Assembly (NCBI GenBank): GCA_963703085.1
Contig: OY969789.1
Coordinates: 1,523,398 to 1,587,397, forward strand
Direction: 5' to 3'
Source: an uncultured Actinomycetota bacterium
Lineage (GTDB): Bacteria; Actinomycetota; Actinomycetes; Mycobacteriales; Jatrophihabitantaceae
DNA: 64,000 nt
Part shown: positions 3,567 through 41,833 of the stretch, one piece after another
Layout of the letters: the number at the start of each line of letters is the position of its first letter
Numbering within the stretch: position 1 is the stretch's first letter
Program-made: the position numbers and the translations under genes
The notes under the pieces: model-generated
The model's input: the letters and a program-made list of their open reading frames with translations, nothing else
The model's database searches: none
Told to the model about the DNA's origin: nothing

Positions 3567-4826
3567 CTAGTCGCCGGCCCGGCGCCGGCGACCGACGTAG
3601 GAGTCGTCGCTACCCGCACGCGGTGATCGCGGCACAGGCTGGCCGGTCTCGTGCCTGCCTTCGGGCTCCGCCGCGAACCGGCGAGTGGCCCCGATCCCGA
3701 CCGGCTGGCCGAGATGCCGTGACCCGGCAGCTGCGGCCGGTTGGCTCGTCGCCAGCCGGCGCGGCGGTGCAGCGGGTATGTCGGTCTGCGCCGCAGGGCG
3801 GTGCACCGGCCGAGACGGTTCGGCGGCCGGACCGGGGACCGGCGCCTGCGGTGCCGGCGTCGGCGCCTGAGCAGCCGGTGGCGGCGCGGCGGGCGGCTGG
3901 TCGGCGAGCAGATCCAGGTCGTCCACCGGGGTCAGCCTGGGCAGTCCGGCGAACGGGTCGGCGGCAAGCGTGGTGCGAGGGGGGTCGGCAGGCGGCGGGA
4001 CCGGCTGCTCGACGGCCGGCGGGGCGGGCTGCTCCGCCGCAGCCGCCGGGACGGGCTGCTCCGCCGCAGCCGCCGGCTCCGGGCGCCGCTCGACAACAGG
4101 TACCTGCGGGCCATCGGGCAGAACCACCGCGGGCATCGGCTGGGTGGCGTCGGCCGGGATCGGGGACTGCGGCGGCGCCGGCCGCTGTGGGCCGGGTCGC
4201 TCGGTCCTTGGCGCGGCCGGGGAAGCAGCGGGGTCAGCGGCCGGTTGCGCTGCGGCCGCGGCCGGTTCCGGCGTTCGCAGCGGGCTGGGCTGCGGTGGGG
4301 CGGCCACCAGCGAGGCCAGCGTCTCCTGGGAGCCGGACCGGCGGCGCACCTCCTCCTGCAGTTCGGCGATGTTCGAGCCGACGATCCGGGTTTCGATGCG
4401 CTCCAGGCGCATCCGGCCGTCGACGGCGTCCTGAACGTCGCTGCGCAGCCCGGCCACCTCATGCCGCAGCGAGACCAGCTCGGCGCGCAGGCCCTTCTCC
4501 AGCTCGCGGCGCAGCATCACCTCGAGCTGCAGCTCGTACTCCCGGCGGCCGGCCCGTTCGCGCTCCAGTTCCAGCTCGTAGTGCCGGCGCACTTCCAGTT
4601 CGCTGCCCGGCTCATCTTCGTGATAGGCCTCGCTCGGATGCGAACGCCGCGGACCGTAGACGCTGAATCCGCCGAAAACCAATCCCCAGGCGCCGGCCAG
4701 GAGCCCGAGTCGGACGGTCTTGGTCTCGGTGCCGAACACGATCATCCCGACCGCACAGACGCTGAGCCCAACCGCGATCGCGATGCCGACGAAGCGCAGC
4801 GCTGTGCGACCGCGGGCTGACGACAT
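3567..4826 (-). CDS. Ala/Arg/Pro-rich membrane protein with coiled-coil segment (DUF6779 / Rv3604c-like)
   Basis: 419 aa. Two N-terminal TM helices (FVGIAIAVGLSVCAVGMIVF, LGLLAGAWGLVFGGFSVY). A charged coiled-coil follows (RHYELELERERAGRREYELQLEVMLRRELEKGLRAEL), then a Pro/Ala-rich tail. Its syntenic position is next to the DUF2520 gene. Confidence 0.75.
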   Translation of the reverse strand: MSSARGRTALRFVGIAIAVGLSVCAVGMIVFGTETKTVRLGLLAGAWGLVFGGFSVYGPRRSHPSEAYHEDEPGSELEVRRHYELELERERAGRREYELQLEVMLRRELEKGLRAELVSLRHEVAGLRSDVQDAVDGRMRLERIETRIVGSNIAELQEEVRRRSGSQETLASLVAAPPQPSPLRTPEPAAAAAQPAADPAASPAAPRTERPGPQRPAPPQSPIPADATQPMPAVVLPDGPQVPVVERRPEPAAAAEQPVPAAAAEQPAPPAVEQPVPPPADPPRTTLAADPFAGLPRLTPVDDLDLLADQPPAAPPPAAQAPTPAPQAPVPGPAAEPSRPVHRPAAQTDIPAAPPRRLATSQPAAAAGSRHLGQPVGIGATRRFAAEPEGRHETGQPVPRSPRAGSDDSYVGRRRRAGD

Positions 4827-8944: not shown

Positions 8945-9918
8945 GCGGCGCAGGCCGTGGCGCGTCGCTGCCACCACTCGGCCCGCTCGGCCGGTGCGGC
9001 CAGCGTGCGCAGCAGCGCCGGGTCCGGCACCACGGCGCCAACAGCCAGCATCCCGGCGACGGGTCGCTGCGGTGCGCCGACGACATCCGCGCCGAGCAGC
9101 GATCCGGTGGCCAGCCCGCACGCGTAGGGCAGCTCCGGCAGGGCGCCGGCCAGGGCCAACCCGGCAGCGATCCCGACGGCAGTGTCGATCGCGCTGGACA
9201 CCACCACCGGCAGCCCGACCTGCTCGGCCAACCGCAAGCAGGCCCGCACACCGCCCAGCGGCGCCACCTTCAACACCACCACGTCGGCTGCCTCGGCGGA
9301 CACCACGCGCAGCGGGTCGTCGCTGCGCCGGATGGACTCGTCCGCGGCGATCGGCACGTCCACGGCACGGCGCACCGCGGCAAGCTCGGCGACAGACCTG
9401 CACGGCTGCTCGACGTACTCCAGGCCGCCGGCTGCCTTGTCGTACAAGGGGATCAGTCGCGTGGCGGTGTCGACATCCCATCCGGTGTTGACGTCGATGC
9501 GCACCCGTCCGCCCGGGCCGATGGCATCTCGGACCGCTTCCAGACGAGCCAGGTCGGCCGCCTCGTTCTGGCCGCGTTCGGCAACCTTCACCTTCGCCGT
9601 CCGGCAGCCACCCGAGCCGCGCACCAAGTCCGCAGCGTGGTCGGGATCGGTCGCCGGGATCGTGACATTGACCGGCACCTCGTCGCGCACCGCGGCCGGA
9701 AAGCCCTGCTCGGCTGCTTCCCGCGCCGCCAGCCACCACCCGCGCGCCTCGGCAACGTCGTACTCGACGAACGGCGCGAACTCGCCCCAGCCGGCCGGCC
9801 CCTCGATCAGCATCGCCTCGCGCACCGTGATGCCCCGGAACCGGGTGCGCATCGGAATCGACACCACGGCGCTGCGCACCTCGGTTACGTTAGCGGGTCG
9901 CCACCGACCCACCCCCAT
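8941..9918 (-). CDS. menC: o-succinylbenzoate synthase
   Basis: 325 aa. PMRTRFRGITVREAMLIEGPAGWGEFAPFVEY and KVKV/IDVN/EQPC enolase-superfamily metal-ligand strands match actinobacterial MenC. Confidence 0.9.
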   Translation of the reverse strand: MGVGRWRPANVTEVRSAVVSIPMRTRFRGITVREAMLIEGPAGWGEFAPFVEYDVAEARGWWLAAREAAEQGFPAAVRDEVPVNVTIPATDPDHAADLVRGSGGCRTAKVKVAERGQNEAADLARLEAVRDAIGPGGRVRIDVNTGWDVDTATRLIPLYDKAAGGLEYVEQPCRSVAELAAVRRAVDVPIAADESIRRSDDPLRVVSAEAADVVVLKVAPLGGVRACLRLAEQVGLPVVVSSAIDTAVGIAAGLALAGALPELPYACGLATGSLLGADVVGAPQRPVAGMLAVGAVVPDPALLRTLAAPAERAEWWQRRATACAA

Positions 9919-10009: not shown

Positions 10010-10918
10010 GTGACGACACCGGTATCCGAGACGTTCGATGCGTCGGCCTGGCGACCGGTCGACGGGTTCGAGCTGACCGACCTCACCTACCACCGGCACG
10101 TGCACCTGGGCGTCGTGCGCATCGCCTTCGACCGGCCGGAAGTGCGCAACGCCTTCCGCCCGGGGACGGTCGACGAGCTGTACCGCGCGCTGGACCATGC
10201 CCGGATGACGCCGGACGTGGGAGCGGTGCTGCTCACCGGCAACGGCCCGTCGCCCAAGGACGGCGGCTGGGCATTCTGCTCGGGCGGTGACCAGCGCATC
10301 CGCGGTCGGGACGGCTACCGCTATGCCGGTGGCGACACGGCCGAGTCGATCGACCCGGCCCAGTCCGGGCGGCTGCACATCCTCGAGGTACAACGGCTGA
10401 TCCGCACCATGCCCAAGGTGGTGATCGCGCTGGTCGGCGGCTGGGCGGCCGGCGGCGGTCACTCGCTGCACGTGGTCTGCGATCTGACCATCGCCAGCCG
10501 CGAGCATGCCCGGTTCAAGCAGACCGACGCCGACGTGGGCAGCTTCGACGGCGGCTACGGATCTGCCTACCTGGCAAGGCAAACCGGGCAGAAGGTGGCC
10601 CGGGAGATCTTCTTCCTCGGCGCCGAGTACGACGCGCAGCGTGCCCTCGAGTTGCATGCGGTGAACGCGGTCGTCGGGCACGCCGACCTCGAACCGACCG
10701 GCATCGACTGGGCCCGCACCATCCTCGGCAAGAGCCCGACGGCCATCCGGATGCTGAAGTTCGCGTTCAACCTCGCCGACGACGGGCTGATGGGCCAACA
10801 GGTGTTCGCCGGTGAAGCGACTCGGCTGGCCTACATGACCGACGAAGCGGTCGAAGGACGCGATGCGTTCCTGCAGAAGCGGCCGCCGGACTGGTCGCCG
10901 TTCCCGTACCACTTCTGA
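10010..10918 (+). CDS. menB: 1,4-dihydroxy-2-naphthoyl-CoA synthase
   Basis: I trimmed the ORF to GTG 10010. Crotonase fold with MenB-specific stretches: AFCSGGDQRIRG, GWAAGGGHSLHVVCDLTIAS, KQTDADVGSFDGGYGSAYLAR, and C-terminal FLQKRPPDWSPFPYHF. Confidence 0.95.
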   Translation: MTTPVSETFDASAWRPVDGFELTDLTYHRHVHLGVVRIAFDRPEVRNAFRPGTVDELYRALDHARMTPDVGAVLLTGNGPSPKDGGWAFCSGGDQRIRGRDGYRYAGGDTAESIDPAQSGRLHILEVQRLIRTMPKVVIALVGGWAAGGGHSLHVVCDLTIASREHARFKQTDADVGSFDGGYGSAYLARQTGQKVAREIFFLGAEYDAQRALELHAVNAVVGHADLEPTGIDWARTILGKSPTAIRMLKFAFNLADDGLMGQQVFAGEATRLAYMTDEAVEGRDAFLQKRPPDWSPFPYHF

Positions 10919-34929: not shown

Positions 34930-35271
34930 ATGCCTGAGTACCTGGTCCTGATCTACGAGGACGAGCGGCAGTGGGAATCGATCAGCCCGGACGACTGGGC
35001 ACAGGCGATGCAGGCGCACAGCGACTTCGCCGAGAAGGCGGTCGCCGGTGGCGCGAAGATCGTCAACACCCGGCCCTTGGAGCCGACGCGCGCGACTACT
35101 TCCTTCCGCGAGGGCCTGATCACCGAGGGCCCGTTCGTCGAGACCGCTGAGCAGCTCGGCGGTTACTACCTGGTGGAGGCGCGCGATCTCGACCACGCGC
35201 TGGAGGTCGGCGCGATGGCGCCGGCCCGCAACGGCCACGTCGAAGTACGCCCGATCGCAGATCTCGACTAG
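34930..35271 (+). CDS. YciI family protein
   Basis: 113 aa. MPEYLVLIYEDE..., GPFVETAEQLGGYYLVEARDLDHALE is typical of YciI/DGPF domain proteins. Confidence 0.85.
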   Translation: MPEYLVLIYEDERQWESISPDDWAQAMQAHSDFAEKAVAGGAKIVNTRPLEPTRATTSFREGLITEGPFVETAEQLGGYYLVEARDLDHALEVGAMAPARNGHVEVRPIADLD

Positions 35272-35924
35272 CCGCCGAGCAACCCGGACTCGTAACCCGC
35301 GGCCACTGCAGCGGCCCGGTCGCTGACGCCGAGCTTGGCGTAGATGTGCACGAGGTGTGTTTTCACCGTCGCCTCGCTGACGAACAGCTCGCGGGCGGCA
35401 TCGCGGTTGGTGGTTCCGCGCGCGACGAGACGCAGCACATCGATCTCGCGCGGGCTCAGTGTTGCCTGCTTCGGGTCCCGGACCTGGCCGAGCAGCCGCT
35501 CGGCCACCGAGGAGGCCAGCACCGTCTCGCCACGATGCGCGGCACGCACCGCCCGGAGCAACTCTTCGCCCGACGCGTCCTTGAGCAGGTAACCGGTGGC
35601 GCCGGCTTCCACTGCGGCGACGACATCGGCGTCGGTGTCGAACGTGGTGAGCACCAGAACCGGGGTGTGCTGCCCGGCCGCTCGCAGCGCCCGGATGGTC
35701 TCCGCCCCGCCGAGATCCGGCATCCGCAAATCCATCAGCACGACGTCGGGATCCAGCGCGGGCACCAGCGCCAGCGCGTTCCGGCCGCCGGATGCCGTGC
35801 CCACCACCTCGATGCCGGGCTCGTCGGCGAACAGCCCGCTCAGCCCGTCCCGCACGATCGGGTGGTCGTCGACGATCAACAGGCGGATGGGCGCTGCGCT
35901 CATCGGTGCGTCCTGCGCCGCCAC
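35268..35924 (-). CDS. two-component response regulator, NarL/LuxR family
   Basis: REC domain (LLIVDDHPIVRDGL, VVLMDLRMPDLGG, VLVLTTFD). LuxR HTH (LSPREIDVLRLVARGTTNRDAARELFVSEATVKTHL). An alternative start is ATG 35903. Confidence 0.95.
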   Translation of the reverse strand: MAAQDAPMSAAPIRLLIVDDHPIVRDGLSGLFADEPGIEVVGTASGGRNALALVPALDPDVVLMDLRMPDLGGAETIRALRAAGQHTPVLVLTTFDTDADVVAAVEAGATGYLLKDASGEELLRAVRAAHRGETVLASSVAERLLGQVRDPKQATLSPREIDVLRLVARGTTNRDAARELFVSEATVKTHLVHIYAKLGVSDRAAAVAAGYESGLLGG

Positions 35925-35931
35925 ATTGCGC

Positions 35932-37203
35932 TCATGCTGCCAGCACAGCGGGTACCCGAGCGTTCAGCACAGTGCCCTGCCCCGGCGTGCTCTCCACCTC
36001 GAGCTCACCGCCGACCCGCTGCAGCCGCAACCGCATGCCCTCCAGCCCGAACCCGCCGGCGGCATGCGGGCGCCGCGGTGCGGCGACGTCGAAGCCGATG
36101 CCGTCGTCCTGGACGTCGAGCAGCACGACGTCCTCCATGTACGACAGGGTGACCGCGACCTTCTCCGCCGTGGCGTGCCGCACGATGTTGGCCAGCGCCT
36201 CCTGCATCACTCGCAGCAGGGTGACTTCCAGATCCGGAAGCAGCCGCACCGGCAGTCCGGTGGTCTCCACCCGGGCCGGCACGGCGGATCTCTCCGACCA
36301 GTCGCTGACCGCCCGGCTGATCGCTTCCGGCAACGGGGTGCCCTCCAATGCCTCCGGACGCAGCGCGTTCACCGATCGGCGCGCTTCGCGCAGGCTGCTC
36401 TGCGCCAGTTGCCGAGCGGAGGCATGATGGCGGGTCCGCTCGGCTGCCGTCATCCCCTCGCGGCCAGCTGCGTCGAGTTGCCGGATGATGCCGGTGAGGC
36501 CCTGCGCCAAGGTGTCGTGGATCTCGCCGGCCATCCGGGCCCGCTCGTCGAGCATGCCGGCTTCGCGGGCTTGGGCCAGCAGTTGCGCCTGCAGGCCGGT
36601 GTTCTCCCGCAGTGCCGACTCGAGGTGTTCGTTCGTCGCAGCCAGCTCATTGATCATCGTCTGCCGCTCGGCGCTCTGCGTGGCTGTCATCGTCCCGATG
36701 ACGGTGAACGCGCAGGCGAGGACGCCGTTGATGGCCGCAACCGCGACGTAGGTGGCGATCGAACCCGCCGTGCCGTCCGGGTAGCCGCCGACCTGGGATG
36801 CGGCGACGATCGCGGCATTGGCCACCACGGCCAGCGCCATCCACGGCATGACGAACAGCCGGGCCGCATCGACGTAACCCAGCCACGCCGGCAGTGCGTA
36901 CCACGGGTTCAGCCCGATGAGCACGCCGCACAGCGCCCATCGGACCACCCAGAACACCACCCGGCGGGACATCGCTGCCCGCTCCAGTTCCAGGCCGCCG
37001 TCCCGCCACGCCGTCCAGCCAAGCAGCACCACCGCGAGGGCGACGGACAGTTCGAACCGGCCGGCCGAGCCGTAGCCCTGGGACGTGATGAGTGCAGCCA
37101 AGCCGATCGACATGGTGACGAGTGCGAACGGAGCGACCCGGAAAAAGCGACGGATGCCGCGCTCCCACTGCGGATTGCCGGAGAGCACATGGATCATCGC
37201 CAC
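35932..37203 (-). CDS. sensor histidine kinase (HisKA_3 / NarX-DesK type) with polytopic N-terminal sensor
   Basis: About 6 N-terminal TM helices. H-box ERARMAGEIHDTLAQGL. HATPase_c motifs (EALANIVRHA, DDGIGF, GFGLEGMRLRL). The start is GTG 37203 or ATG 37197, with no obvious SD. Confidence 0.9.
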   Translation of the reverse strand: MAMIHVLSGNPQWERGIRRFFRVAPFALVTMSIGLAALITSQGYGSAGRFELSVALAVVLLGWTAWRDGGLELERAAMSRRVVFWVVRWALCGVLIGLNPWYALPAWLGYVDAARLFVMPWMALAVVANAAIVAASQVGGYPDGTAGSIATYVAVAAINGVLACAFTVIGTMTATQSAERQTMINELAATNEHLESALRENTGLQAQLLAQAREAGMLDERARMAGEIHDTLAQGLTGIIRQLDAAGREGMTAAERTRHHASARQLAQSSLREARRSVNALRPEALEGTPLPEAISRAVSDWSERSAVPARVETTGLPVRLLPDLEVTLLRVMQEALANIVRHATAEKVAVTLSYMEDVVLLDVQDDGIGFDVAAPRRPHAAGGFGLEGMRLRLQRVGGELEVESTPGQGTVLNARVPAVLAA

Positions 37204-37213
37204 GGCTGCACGC

Positions 37214-37384
37214 TCACGCCGGTGATCGTCTCGGGATCATGCTCGCTCCGCAAGCGTCGCTCGGGATCATGCTCGCTCCGCAAGCGTCGCTCGGGATCAT
37301 GCTCGCTCCGCAAGCGTCGCTCGGGATCATGCTCGCTCCGCAAGCGTCGCTCGGGATCATGCTCGCTCCGCAAGCGTCGCTCAT
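37214..37384 (-). CDS. candidate repeat-encoded micro-ORF (56 aa) translationally coupled to the ABC-2 permease
   Basis: ATG 37384-37382 overlaps the permease TGA 37383-37381. The ORF reads MSDACGAS(MIPSDACGAS)x4MIPRRSPA and stops at 37216-37214. Every repeat unit supplies GGAG-N5-ATG in this frame. Translation is unproven. Confidence 0.3.
   Translation of the reverse strand: MSDACGASMIPSDACGASMIPSDACGASMIPSDACGASMIPSDACGASMIPRRSPA
37231..37380. repeat. perfect tandem repeat, 5 x 30 bp (tcgggatcatgctcgctccgcaagcgtcgc)
   Basis: Direct reading. Units at 37231, 37261, 37291, 37321 and 37351 are identical with no mismatch or spacer. They occupy 150 of the 177 nt between the ABC-2 permease stop and the kinase start. 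Confidence 0.98.
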
Positions 37385-38151
37385 TCCCAGCGGAACAACC
37401 GCACGGCCAACGCACTGAACCCGACTGCATAGGCGGCCAGCACGCCCAGTTGCAGCGCGCCGGGGAAATGCCCGCCGGTCGCGTCCTGCATGGCCTGCAC
37501 CGTTGCACCGAGCGGGGTGTAGTCGCTGATGTGGCGCAGCACCGGCGGCATCTGCGCCCGCGGCAGCCACAACCCGGCGAAGAACATCATCGGGAAGAAC
37601 AGCACGGCGCCGGCCGCGTTCGCGATCTTGGCCGACGGCGCCACCGCGGCCACGAAGACGCCGATTCCGAGCAACGCCGCGGCAGCGAGCACGTAAGTGA
37701 CGACGTAGCCGCCGAACTGCTTCGGCAGTGCTACCTGATACCCGATCCGGGCGACGACGAGCAGCACGATGCTGGTGATTGCACCCGCGCAGAAGTGCAG
37801 GAGTACCTGGATGCGCAGCAGCGCTACCGGCGAGACCGGCGTGGTGGCCAACCGTCGCAGTACCCCACGTTCGCGGTAGGTGCCGAGCACCGGCGGCAAC
37901 CCGTTCAACGCGAGCATCGCCATCGAGAAGACGGTGATGATCGGCAGGTACGCGCTGAAGTAGCTCAGCCCGTGCAACTCCTTCGCCGGGTCGCGGGTGG
38001 CCGGGAAGGCGCCCAGCACAACGATCGCGATCAGCGGCGCAAGCATGCCCCACACCAAGCCGATCGGGTCGCGCCGGAACAGGGTCGCCTCGGTGCGGGC
38101 CAGCCGGGTGCGGCGGCGGGGGCTGACGGTGGGCAGCACTGCGGTACTCAT
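37381..38151 (-). CDS. ABC-2 type transporter permease
   Basis: 256 aa with 6 TM helices and ABC-2 family topology. The ATG overlaps the ATPase stop (ATGA). Confidence 0.9.
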   Translation of the reverse strand: MSTAVLPTVSPRRRTRLARTEATLFRRDPIGLVWGMLAPLIAIVVLGAFPATRDPAKELHGLSYFSAYLPIITVFSMAMLALNGLPPVLGTYRERGVLRRLATTPVSPVALLRIQVLLHFCAGAITSIVLLVVARIGYQVALPKQFGGYVVTYVLAAAALLGIGVFVAAVAPSAKIANAAGAVLFFPMMFFAGLWLPRAQMPPVLRHISDYTPLGATVQAMQDATGGHFPGALQLGVLAAYAVGFSALAVRLFRWE

Positions 38152-39059
38152 GAGCGGTCCTTCGCGGCAGAGGTGAGGGCGACGAATGCGTCGTCGAGGG
38201 TGGCCTGGTCGACGCGCAGGGAGCGCGCGACGACGCCCTGCTGGGCGAGCCAGCCGGTGACCGAAGCGACCATCGCGTCATCGCCGATGACGCTGAGCGT
38301 TCCGCCGTGCCCGGCCACCTCGGTGACGCCCGGCAGAGCACGTAGCGCGTCCTCGTCGATCGGCCGCGACGGGACGAAGCGCAGGTGCTGCGGTGCGTCG
38401 ACGCGCTGGGCCAGCCCATCTGGCGTGTCCAGCGCGACGACCTTGCCGGAGTCGATCACGGCGACCCGGTCGCAGAGCCGCTCGGCCTCCTCCATGAAGT
38501 GGGTGACCAGCAGAATCGTCACCCCGCGGGCCCGTGCGTCCTCGATCAACTGCCAGGTCTCCCGGCGTGCGGCCGGATCGAGCCCGGTGGTCAGTTCGTC
38601 GAGAATGGCGACCCGGGGGTTGCCGATCAGCGCGAGCGCGATGGACAGCCGTTGCCGCTGGCCACCGGACAACCGGCGAAAGACAGTCCGGCGCGCAGCA
38701 GAGAGGCCGAGGCGTTCCATCAGCTCGCGCCAGTCGGCGGGATGCTCGTAGAACGAGCTGTACAGCTCGAGCGCCTCGGCGACGCGCAGCCGGTCGGGGA
38801 ACTGGCTGTCCTGCAGCTGCACACCGAGGATGCGGTGCAGCGCGGCGGCATCACGCTGCGGATCCAGCCCGTGCACCCGGATCGTTCCGCCGTCCGGGCG
38901 GCGCAACCCGGAGATGCATTCCGCGGTGGTGGTCTTGCCCGCGCCGTTCGGCCCGAGGATCCCGAAGATCTCGCCTTCTTCGACCTGCAGCGACACATCG
39001 TCGACGACGGTGCGCCGCCCGTACCGCTTCACTAGGTGGTCGACGTGCACGACCGGCAT
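38148..39059 (-). CDS. ABC transporter ATP-binding protein (DrrA/ABC-2 exporter type)
   Basis: Walker A GPNGAGKTT, signature LSGGQRQRLSIALAL, Walker B ILDELTTGLD. Confidence 0.95.
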   Translation of the reverse strand: MPVVHVDHLVKRYGRRTVVDDVSLQVEEGEIFGILGPNGAGKTTTAECISGLRRPDGGTIRVHGLDPQRDAAALHRILGVQLQDSQFPDRLRVAEALELYSSFYEHPADWRELMERLGLSAARRTVFRRLSGGQRQRLSIALALIGNPRVAILDELTTGLDPAARRETWQLIEDARARGVTILLVTHFMEEAERLCDRVAVIDSGKVVALDTPDGLAQRVDAPQHLRFVPSRPIDEDALRALPGVTEVAGHGGTLSVIGDDAMVASVTGWLAQQGVVARSLRVDQATLDDAFVALTSAAKDRS

Positions 39060-39226
39060 CGGTATTGCCCTTCTGAGTCAGTGGATTCGACCCGGTCAGC
39101 ATCCGATGAGACCGTCGCGTGCCGCATCGGCCGCATGGTCAGCAGTTCTCGCACTGCGGTGGATACCCCCATCCACCGATCGGTTGATGGGGCGTGGCCG
39201 GCCGAGCGAACTGGGCGGCCGGCGCC

Positions 39227-40126
39227 TCAGTCGACCGGGGTGATCCGAACCGGCCGGTGCACCAGGAACGCCGCCGGACCGGCCGCGTGGCAGGTCAGCT
39301 TGGCCGGCTCGGACCGCTCGACCACGACGGACACGTCGACCACGCCGTGCGGAGTGTCCAGCCGGACCGTGATCGGCTCGCCGTCGGTGCGGCGCAGCCC
39401 GATCACTCGGACCTCCCCCACCTTGCGCAGCGCGAGCTGCTCGTGGGCGAACGCCATCGCCGCCTGCGCCGCCGGGACGAAGCCCACCCGGCCGCGCAGC
39501 AGCGCCCCGACCACTTCGCCCGCCTCTGCGGCGTCGATGAATTCCTGCGCGGCGAACGGCAGCACCCGGCCGTAGAGCAACCCGGTCGGCAGCACCAGCA
39601 CGTTGGCGGCGAACCGTTCGCCGCCCACATGGCTGCACTCCCAGACCCGTCCGGGACGCAGTCGGGTCAGCGCGTCAGCTACGGGGCGCCCGCGCAGCGC
39701 GCAGCAGGTGTCGTGCCGGCTGTGCGCGCACACCAGGAAGGTGGGCGCCGTCTCGGCTGTACCGGCCGATCCGTCCAGCGGCAGGTCGAGCAGCTCGGCC
39801 TCGGCGGTGTAGGTGCCCCAGCGCTGCTCCTCGACGCCGGCCCGGCAGTTCACCAGCGCCCACTTGCGCAGCGCCCCCTTCGGTGTGCGGCCGAACCGGC
39901 GCACCGCGAGGGTCCGGATGCCGGCCACCGAGGCGCGCTGTTCCAGGTCCGTGGCGACGGCACGGTCGAAGCGCGATTCCCGTAGGCCGGCCGAACCCCA
40001 TGGCCCCGGCTGCTCGACGAGCAGGATGCGTCCGGCCGGGAAGGCCGTGCCGAGCATCGCGTCGCCACGGAGTTGGGCGCGCAACGCGCACCGTTCCAGG
40101 GTCTCGCGTGGGTGCGGGTGGGTCAC
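39227..40126 (-). CDS. sucrase/ferredoxin-like family protein (thioredoxin-like [2Fe-2S] fold)
   Basis: 299 aa. Contains LVEQPGPWG and the Cys cluster FLVCAHSRHDTCCALRGRP...WECSHVGGERFA, characteristic of the sucrase_ferredoxin family (recognised from memory). Confidence 0.8.
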   Translation of the reverse strand: MTHPHPRETLERCALRAQLRGDAMLGTAFPAGRILLVEQPGPWGSAGLRESRFDRAVATDLEQRASVAGIRTLAVRRFGRTPKGALRKWALVNCRAGVEEQRWGTYTAEAELLDLPLDGSAGTAETAPTFLVCAHSRHDTCCALRGRPVADALTRLRPGRVWECSHVGGERFAANVLVLPTGLLYGRVLPFAAQEFIDAAEAGEVVGALLRGRVGFVPAAQAAMAFAHEQLALRKVGEVRVIGLRRTDGEPITVRLDTPHGVVDVSVVVERSEPAKLTCHAAGPAAFLVHRPVRITPVD

Positions 40127-41441: not shown

Positions 41442-41705
41442 TCAGCTGGCGCCGCCATCGGCGCCGCCGTCGTGCTCACCGGGCGCGCCATCGGCGCCCC
41501 CGTCCGCGGGACCCTCGGCGCCACCATCAGCACCACCGTCGGCACCGCCATCCTCCGTACCCGGAGCGCCGGCGGCGCCGCCGTCCGCGGGGCCCTCGGC
41601 GCCGCCATCAGCACCACCGTCGTGCTGGCCGGGCGTGCCGTCCGCGCCGCCGTCAGCTGGGCCTTCGGTCTCGTCCGTGCTGAATCCGTCGTCGGTTACG
41701 CTCAT
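41442..41705 (-). CDS. small acidic Asp/Gly-rich repeat protein (87 aa), hypothetical
   Basis: ATG 41705 has AGGAGG 4 nt upstream. Three tandem 23-27 aa units of the form EGPADGGADGxPGxxDGGADGGA. The stop lies 12 nt before the cupin ATG. The opposite-strand ORFs here are Arg-rich shadow frames. Confidence 0.6.
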   Translation of the reverse strand: MSVTDDGFSTDETEGPADGGADGTPGQHDGGADGGAEGPADGGAAGAPGTEDGGADGGADGGAEGPADGGADGAPGEHDGGADGGAS

Positions 41706-41833
41706 CGTTCCTCCTGGATCAGGGCGTGCGCCAGCGAACTCGCCGAGCGCAGTTGGACGCGGCGGGGGTTCCACCGGTGCTCACCGTAGCGACCCGCCGA
41801 ACCCGGCCACAAGCACCTCGGTCGGCCTTCCGG

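Follow-up and report, generated by a model that had tools for sequence, protein, structure and literature searches.

An intercistronic tandem array in an ABC transporter and two-component module

The window, by which we mean the whole stretch of 64,000 nucleotides analysed here, has a GC content of about 70%. Its minus strand carries a module of four genes in the order ATPase, permease, kinase and regulator, and most of the gap between the permease and kinase genes is occupied by a tandem array. In the list below, L001 is a contig from a Jatrophihabitans sp. MAG, L088 is a Logan contig from a different run and L004–L007 are more distant homologous modules.

38148–39059, minus strand: ABC ATPase, first gene of the module (Pfam ABC_tran, E = 8.6e-31; syntenic with a 303-aa gene of L001)
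37381–38151, minus strand: ABC-2 permease of 256 aa, ending in FRWE and the stop codon (GAA-TGA; Pfam ABC2_membrane, E = 8.4e-25)
37214–37384, minus strand: putative relay micro-ORF of 56 codons, with the ATGs of the five units as internal starts in its frame (16-codon counterpart in L001)
37231–37380, minus strand: tandem array of five 30-bp units, each with GGAG-N5-ATG (TRF and pattern search; single copy in L001 and L088)
37204–37230, minus strand: unique 27-nt spacer from the array to the kinase start, which holds the micro-ORF stop (about 52% identity to L001 over 37198–37230)
35932–37203, minus strand: HisKA_3/HATPase_c sensor histidine kinase (Pfam), starting at GTG 37203 or ATG 37197
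35268–35924, minus strand: NarL/LuxR-type response regulator, last gene of the module (Pfam Response_reg and GerE; syntenic in L001 and L004–L007)

The array consists of five abutting units that are 100% identical to one another and read tcgggatcatgctcgctccgcaagcgtcgc on the plus strand and GCGACGCTTGCGGAGCGAGCATGATCCCGA on the coding (minus) strand. TRF reported it at 37230–37382 with a period of 30, 5.1 copies, 100% matches and a score of 306, the top array of the 64-kb window, and a pattern search of the window allowing up to three mismatches recovered only the five array copies, where shuffled sequences (n = 100) gave an expectation of zero. The array fills 150 of the 177 nt between the permease TGA (37383–37381) and the kinase GTG (37203). 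On the coding strand, each unit carries GGAG, a 5-nt spacer and an ATG that overlaps a TGA of the permease/kinase frame, together with a direct repeat (GAGCGA-N8-GAGCGA). The preliminary description of this DNA, made from the letters alone, had set out the five identical copies, their share of the gap and the composition of the unit, and all of this is borne out, as is the placement of the array inside a conserved ATPase–permease–kinase–regulator module, for which Pfam matches and synteny now speak.

Head-to-tail copies of a unit of 10–100 bp, as TRF finds here, are one mark of a bacterial minisatellite or VNTR. The array is an ordinary kind of variable tandem repeat, of the intergenic minisatellite/VNTR class that in mycobacteria is known to vary and to influence expression (PMC12817950). 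Its periodicity extends over 37230–37382, 3 nt more than five full units, owing to a 3-nt GAG microhomology at either end, as would be expected of a first duplication of the slippage type.

The array is most likely transcribed within a single ATPase–permease–kinase–regulator mRNA. The permease protein is identical to P0242, which is encoded on a 3.85-Mb contig. For the kinase, the 421-aa form that begins at ATG 37197 is the one called in public records (P0121), and the L001 kinase begins MIHVLSGNPQWE at the equivalent ATG; ATG 37197 is more likely than GTG 37203 to be the start. At the other end of the kinase gene, the longest ORF of the window regulator opens at GTG 35924, 7 nt past the kinase stop (region 35924–35935); in L001 and in the distant modules, the two genes share a 4-nt overlap.

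The array boundary in an independent assembly

Short reads cannot span a perfect 150-bp array and the copy number comes from a single assembly, so an artefact of assembly or polishing, with a real copy number of one or some number other than five, has to be considered. We regard it as extremely unlikely. The kinase identical to P0121 is recorded on a 3.85-Mb contig and also, at positions 63–1328, on a 1411-bp Logan contig (k = 31) from run ERR11571141. That contig therefore begins 62 nt upstream of ATG 37197, at window position 37259, which is the first k-mer (k = 31) to leave the periodic region 37230–37382. Judging from these coordinates, an independent assembly ends exactly at the array boundary, as expected if the reads hold at least two tandem copies. 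The 3.85-Mb length of the source contig also suggests that long-read data were used. In the source organism, the locus and its copy number are beyond the reach of short-read assembly.

A single conserved unit at the orthologous site of a relative

The best database relatives of the permease (89% identity) and the kinase (83%) are both encoded in one Jatrophihabitans sp. MAG, the only close relative in the collections searched. Its contig, L001, is syntenic with the window over more than 12 kb, with about 80% nucleotide identity across the operon. The permease–kinase junction of L001 reads TGGGAATGA-GCGACGCTTGCGGAGCGAGCATGATGCCTA-GACGATCAC... and holds one unit, identical to the window unit at 28 of 30 positions; L088 has the same single-unit allele. 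Another Logan contig (L003), with a kinase 98% identical, begins with adapter inside the kinase gene and stops short of the spacer. Copy number at this locus therefore differs, five versus one, between species that share about 80% nucleotide identity. The presence of one unit at the same site in the sister genome indicates that a single-copy native spacer is ancestral and was amplified in the window lineage. A recent expansion had been suggested from the perfect identity of the copies, with the proviso that relatives should not carry five diverged copies, and at the between-species level this suggestion stands, as the sole close relative has one.

The amplified piece is unusually well conserved. 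Between the window and L001, the 30-bp unit is 93% identical, compared with 80% for the whole operon, 65–70% for third codon positions, 60% for the upstream intergenic region and 52% for the 3' spacer. The last 17 nt of the permease gene together with the first 25 nt of the unit form a 42-nt perfect run, exceeded in length by only one other identical run in the 4-kb operon; no other non-coding part of the operon is as well conserved as the unit. At a neutral identity of about 0.68, we calculate a probability of about 6e-5 per site for 25 consecutive matches. Conservation so far above the neutral proxies argues that the amplified piece is functional sequence, not junk, and on this comparison it is under constraint. 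Perfect conservation over 25 nt also exceeds what a Shine–Dalgarno (SD) element and an ATG need, and the conserved element may have some other role.

Comparison with MIRU elements

The preliminary description had likened the array to mycobacterial MIRU elements, such as those between senX3 and regX3. As these are presented in PMC3184786 and PMC12548453, after Supply et al. 1997, the likeness extends to three respects: tandem repeats lie inside a two-component-system operon, a small repeat ORF starts on the upstream stop codon (ATGA) and translation is, or here would be, relayed to the next gene, and the unit length is a multiple of three, such that the frame is kept when copy number changes. 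The intra-operon site by a two-component system, the ORF start on the upstream stop and the tandem repetition could together suggest a mobile intergenic element of the MIRU kind that was inserted at the kinase start and then multiplied. MIRU, however, are units of 40–100 bp with 40–50 dispersed copies (PMC3184786), whereas the unit here has 30 bp and occupies a single locus. The 21-nt core of the unit, identical in the window and L001, has one match in 185,579 species genomes (596 Gb), which is the orthologous site of L001 itself, and no match in JGI metagenomes; the rest of the 64-kb window is free of unit fragments 12 nt or longer. The search for further copies that had been proposed as a check thus found, in these species genomes, metagenomes and the window, none beyond the orthologous site.

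Nor is there a contrast between empty and filled sites, since the orthologous site of the relative (L001/L088) already holds a single, highly conserved copy. This argues that the unit is native and was amplified in place, not inserted. Compared with MIRU by their published description, the array differs further in that its ORF starts on the permease stop but ends 10–16 nt short of the kinase start, that each unit has its own SD and ATG, and that the host is a soil-type, Jatrophihabitans-like actinobacterium, not Mycobacterium. Insertion of a MIRU-like element is largely refuted by these observations, and by size, dispersal and insertion kinship with MIRU is not supported.

A micro-ORF that ends beside an SD-less kinase start

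The array lies within a 56-codon ORF encoding MSDACGAS(MIPSDACGAS)x4MIPRRSPA. As originally described, its start ATG (37384–37382) overlaps the permease TGA (ATGA) and its stop (37216–37214) lies 10 nt upstream of the kinase GTG 37203; the distance to ATG 37197 is 16 nt. Predicted duplexes with the anti-SD sequence are stronger at the ATPase start (−7.6 kcal/mol), the permease start (−6.2 kcal/mol) and the ATG of each unit (−5.8 kcal/mol), and weaker at the ATGA start of the micro-ORF (−3.3 kcal/mol). Both kinase starts, GTG 37203 (−3.2 kcal/mol) and ATG 37197 (−3.1 kcal/mol), are SD-less: 61% of random positions reach such values. The earlier impression that the kinase has no SD was therefore correct.

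L001 has a 16-codon counterpart, MSDACGASMMPRRSLP, that like the window micro-ORF opens on the permease stop and closes at the matching position. The C-terminal half of the peptide diverges between the two. Its kinase start is likewise poor in anti-SD pairing (−1.9 kcal/mol). At that start, L001 has a 14-bp tandem duplication of its own (10826–10853; about 893–920 in L088; CCATGGCGATGATT / CCATGGCCATGATT), which yields a 7-codon ORF, MAMIPWP, that is equipped with an SD (−5.8 kcal/mol) and whose TGA overlaps the kinase ATG. The window array and the L001 duplication are independent, and both put the kinase start directly behind a short SD-equipped ORF.

These arrangements fit what is known of translational coupling. 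A review describes coupling as efficient at distances of −4 to +25 nt between the upstream stop and the next start and as decaying from +50 to +350 nt, and notes that a gene can have ribosomes 'delivered' to it by a short ORF upstream, with MIRU given as a natural example (PMC12548453). The micro-ORF stop falls inside the efficient range (10 or 16 nt), and in both the window and L001 the downstream start is without a strong ribosome-binding site. The openness of the frame carries little weight of its own: at 70% GC, we estimate a chance of about 0.7 for 16 stop-free codons, and chances of 1/3 each for a unit length that is a multiple of three and for in-frame ATGs.

Homologous modules point in the same direction. 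The distant modules L004–L007, at about 50–57% identity, have the same ATPase–permease–kinase–regulator order with compact junctions. The kinase follows the permease at +15 nt in L004 and at −4 nt in L005 and L006, where the kinase ATG is that of the ATGA; at the +13-nt junction of L007, a 6-codon ORF overlaps the permease stop with its start and the kinase ATG with its stop. The GAA-TGA (ATGA) permease end is seen in L007 (2983–3003), L004 (2983–3003) and L005 (3001–3004). Across 85 homologous loci, the permease C terminus FRWE is near-invariant and GAA-TGA ends 17 of them, mostly the nearest homologues. In the loci with a kinase next in line, the earliest start open to it is −4 to about +60 nt from the permease; the window gap (171–177 nt) is the longest and that of L001 (72–78 nt) is the next. 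The compact junctions of the homologues indicate that the long spacer of the window is derived and that coupling-type junctions are the norm in this family.

Searches for a promoter, RNA structure or peptide product

An alternative role for the unit is as a tandem promoter or operator repeat that drives or controls separate transcription of the kinase and regulator genes, with copy number setting promoter strength. Conservation over 25 nt, beyond the needs of SD and ATG, and the GAGCGA direct repeat in each unit would suit such a role, and there are precedents: the senX3–regX3 intergenic region has promoter activity (PMC4213456), and promoter tandem repeats of M. tuberculosis are phase-variable, with slippage altering copy number and sometimes expression (PMC12817950). 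The array resembles the M. tuberculosis promoter repeats and intergenic VNTRs in consisting of non-coding tandem copies, perfect or nearly so, beside regulated genes. Those repeats, however, hold promoter elements and act on transcription, whereas neither the unit nor the gap around it has a −10-like hexamer: no TANNNT was found on either strand of the 177-nt gap, no promoter elements were found in the unit and no sigma-70-like promoter was found in 35000–39600 of the window. Simple scans of this kind could miss a promoter that is weak or non-canonical, as those of actinobacteria can be. The present array also differs in lying between co-oriented genes of one operon and in that its copy-number difference is known between species. 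Owing to the senX3–regX3 precedent, we keep the promoter or operator explanation in play, but consider it quite improbable.

The possibility that the unit copies an operator upstream of the operon was examined and rejected. Upstream of the ATPase gene (39120–39175, minus strand), two blocks are conserved with L001 (about 8975–9010) in an otherwise 60%-identical intergenic region. The first is CATCAACCGATCGGTGGA..ATC.ACCGC, with the palindrome CCGATCGG and the inverted arms GGTGGAT/ATCCACC; the second is CCGGATGCTGA.CGGGTCG. Neither is related to the unit, which, together with the lack of unit fragments elsewhere in the window, also weighs against the unit as an operator. By their position and conservation, the two blocks are candidates for the promoter or operator of the operon.

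No terminator was found in the 177-nt gap. One terminator-like hairpin, at 37160–37147, was set aside: it falls within the coding sequence of the kinase, and in L001 its T-run is interrupted. A search against known RNA families (Rfam, E ≤ 1) returned only a meaningless snoRNA match inside the kinase gene. The gap RNA has a folding z score of −2.6; the units pair weakly with one another and no conserved or terminator-like structure emerged. The predicted energy for opening the kinase initiation region stays at 17.3–17.6 kcal/mol from one copy to eight, and by this measure the structure at the kinase start is not predicted to depend on copy number. One speculation is that the unit ATG might be an ancestral kinase start displaced by an older duplication: ATGATCC is shared by the unit and the kinase start, and CGGAGC...ATG occurs in L001, but the similarity is very short.

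It had also been suggested that the repeat peptide could itself be a product. A functional Cys-containing repeat peptide could conceivably be encoded by the micro-ORF, whose six in-frame ATGs include five with an SD and whose decapeptides have one Cys each; it would act as, for example, a kinase modulator or a multi-core precursor for export through the neighbouring ABC transporter. Yet none of 5.8 billion proteins has words in common with the micro-ORF product, it has no Pfam match and no gene model, the version of the relative is 16 aa long with a divergent C-terminal half, and no maturation genes lie nearby. These results lend the suggestion no support, and we consider it highly improbable.

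Proposed origin and a possible relay to the kinase

In the reading that we favour, slippage or unequal recombination built a young minisatellite in place, the expansion of which is plausibly tolerated, or mildly useful, by way of the relay micro-ORF and possibly raises kinase translation; we give this reading as a whole a probability of roughly 0.55. We hold its structural and evolutionary part, namely that a conserved intercistronic element was recently amplified where it stood, with considerable confidence. The coupling of the micro-ORF to the kinase is a tentative proposal to which we would give somewhat less than an even chance.

In the proposed sequence of events, a 30-bp piece of the native permease–kinase spacer, flanked by the GAG microhomology, would have been duplicated and then expanded to five copies in this lineage only, through replication slippage or unequal recombination. 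Because the unit is 30 nt (10 codons) long and lies inside the micro-ORF, any copy number keeps the frame and leaves the stop in place, and every further unit would add one more in-frame SD and ATG entry. Ribosomes arriving from the permease, or loaded at any unit, would translate the micro-ORF, terminate beside the kinase start and either re-initiate at this SD-less start or open its structure. Such a frame-keeping relay would allow expansion to be tolerated and may raise kinase translation, with copy number acting as a slippage-prone dial. That the genes are co-transcribed, that the micro-ORF is translated, that ribosomes pass from it to the kinase and that copy number has an effect are all predictions drawn from the arrangement of these signals. 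Tuning of coupling by copy number, as the preliminary description had proposed, is plausible on this view.

In this respect the array recalls the short upstream ORFs that act by termination–reinitiation, as PMC12548453 presents them with reference to Shell et al. 2015: an SD-equipped ORF ends within coupling range before an SD-less start. It differs from them in that its ORF is chained to the stop of the upstream gene, has been lengthened 3.5-fold and has gained five extra entry sites, and in being known from sequence alone.

The chief alternative is that the array is a neutral product of slippage, a minisatellite tolerated in an untranslated spacer, with the micro-ORF a by-product of high GC content and the kinase start either SD-independent or served by its own transcript. 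The perfect identity of the copies implies an array on which selection has not yet had time to act; at 70% GC an open frame is nothing unusual, and no gene caller reports this one; and the constant predicted accessibility of the kinase start and the divergent C-terminal half of the L001 peptide fit this explanation too. A purely neutral array is nevertheless harder to reconcile with a piece conserved far above neutral proxies, with SD-less kinase starts placed just after SD-equipped micro-ORFs in both genomes, and with the retention of ATGA-type junctions by the nearest homologues. On balance we regard neutrality as unlikely, though it deserves serious weight.

A more ambitious extension of the favoured reading is that the locus is a translational contingency locus. 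Through a slippage-prone ladder of SD and ATG elements in the relay micro-ORF, copy number would govern the supply of ribosomes to the SD-less kinase start, thereby tuning the ratio of sensor to ABC exporter heritably and reversibly, with transcription left as it is. The array would then be a non-mobile, convergent counterpart of MIRU that arose from a conserved native coupling element. We consider this rather improbable.

Should the relay from micro-ORF to kinase operate, the locus would be an intercistronic coupling device multiplied by simple slippage with the operon left unbroken, its repeat number would be a translational, not a transcriptional, knob for a sensor kinase, and it would offer a natural test case for termination–reinitiation over long spacers in high-GC actinobacteria. 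Should it not, the locus is still likely to be a hypervariable typing marker and a warning about short-read assemblies that break at the array. In either case, native sequence can give rise on the spot to an architecture like that of MIRU, with no mobile element involved.

Other repeats in the window

The runner-up TRF array of the window lies at 3988–4076 and has a 27-bp unit, 3.4 copies, 83% matches and a score of 115. A degenerate array with a 12-bp period (TRF, 41448–41654) lies within a 110-aa ORF on the minus strand (41442–41774) that encodes an acidic Gly/Ala/Asp tetrapeptide-repeat protein (…DGGADGGAEGPADGGA…). The syntenic gene in L001 (6351–6740) encodes 129 aa and has no Pfam match.
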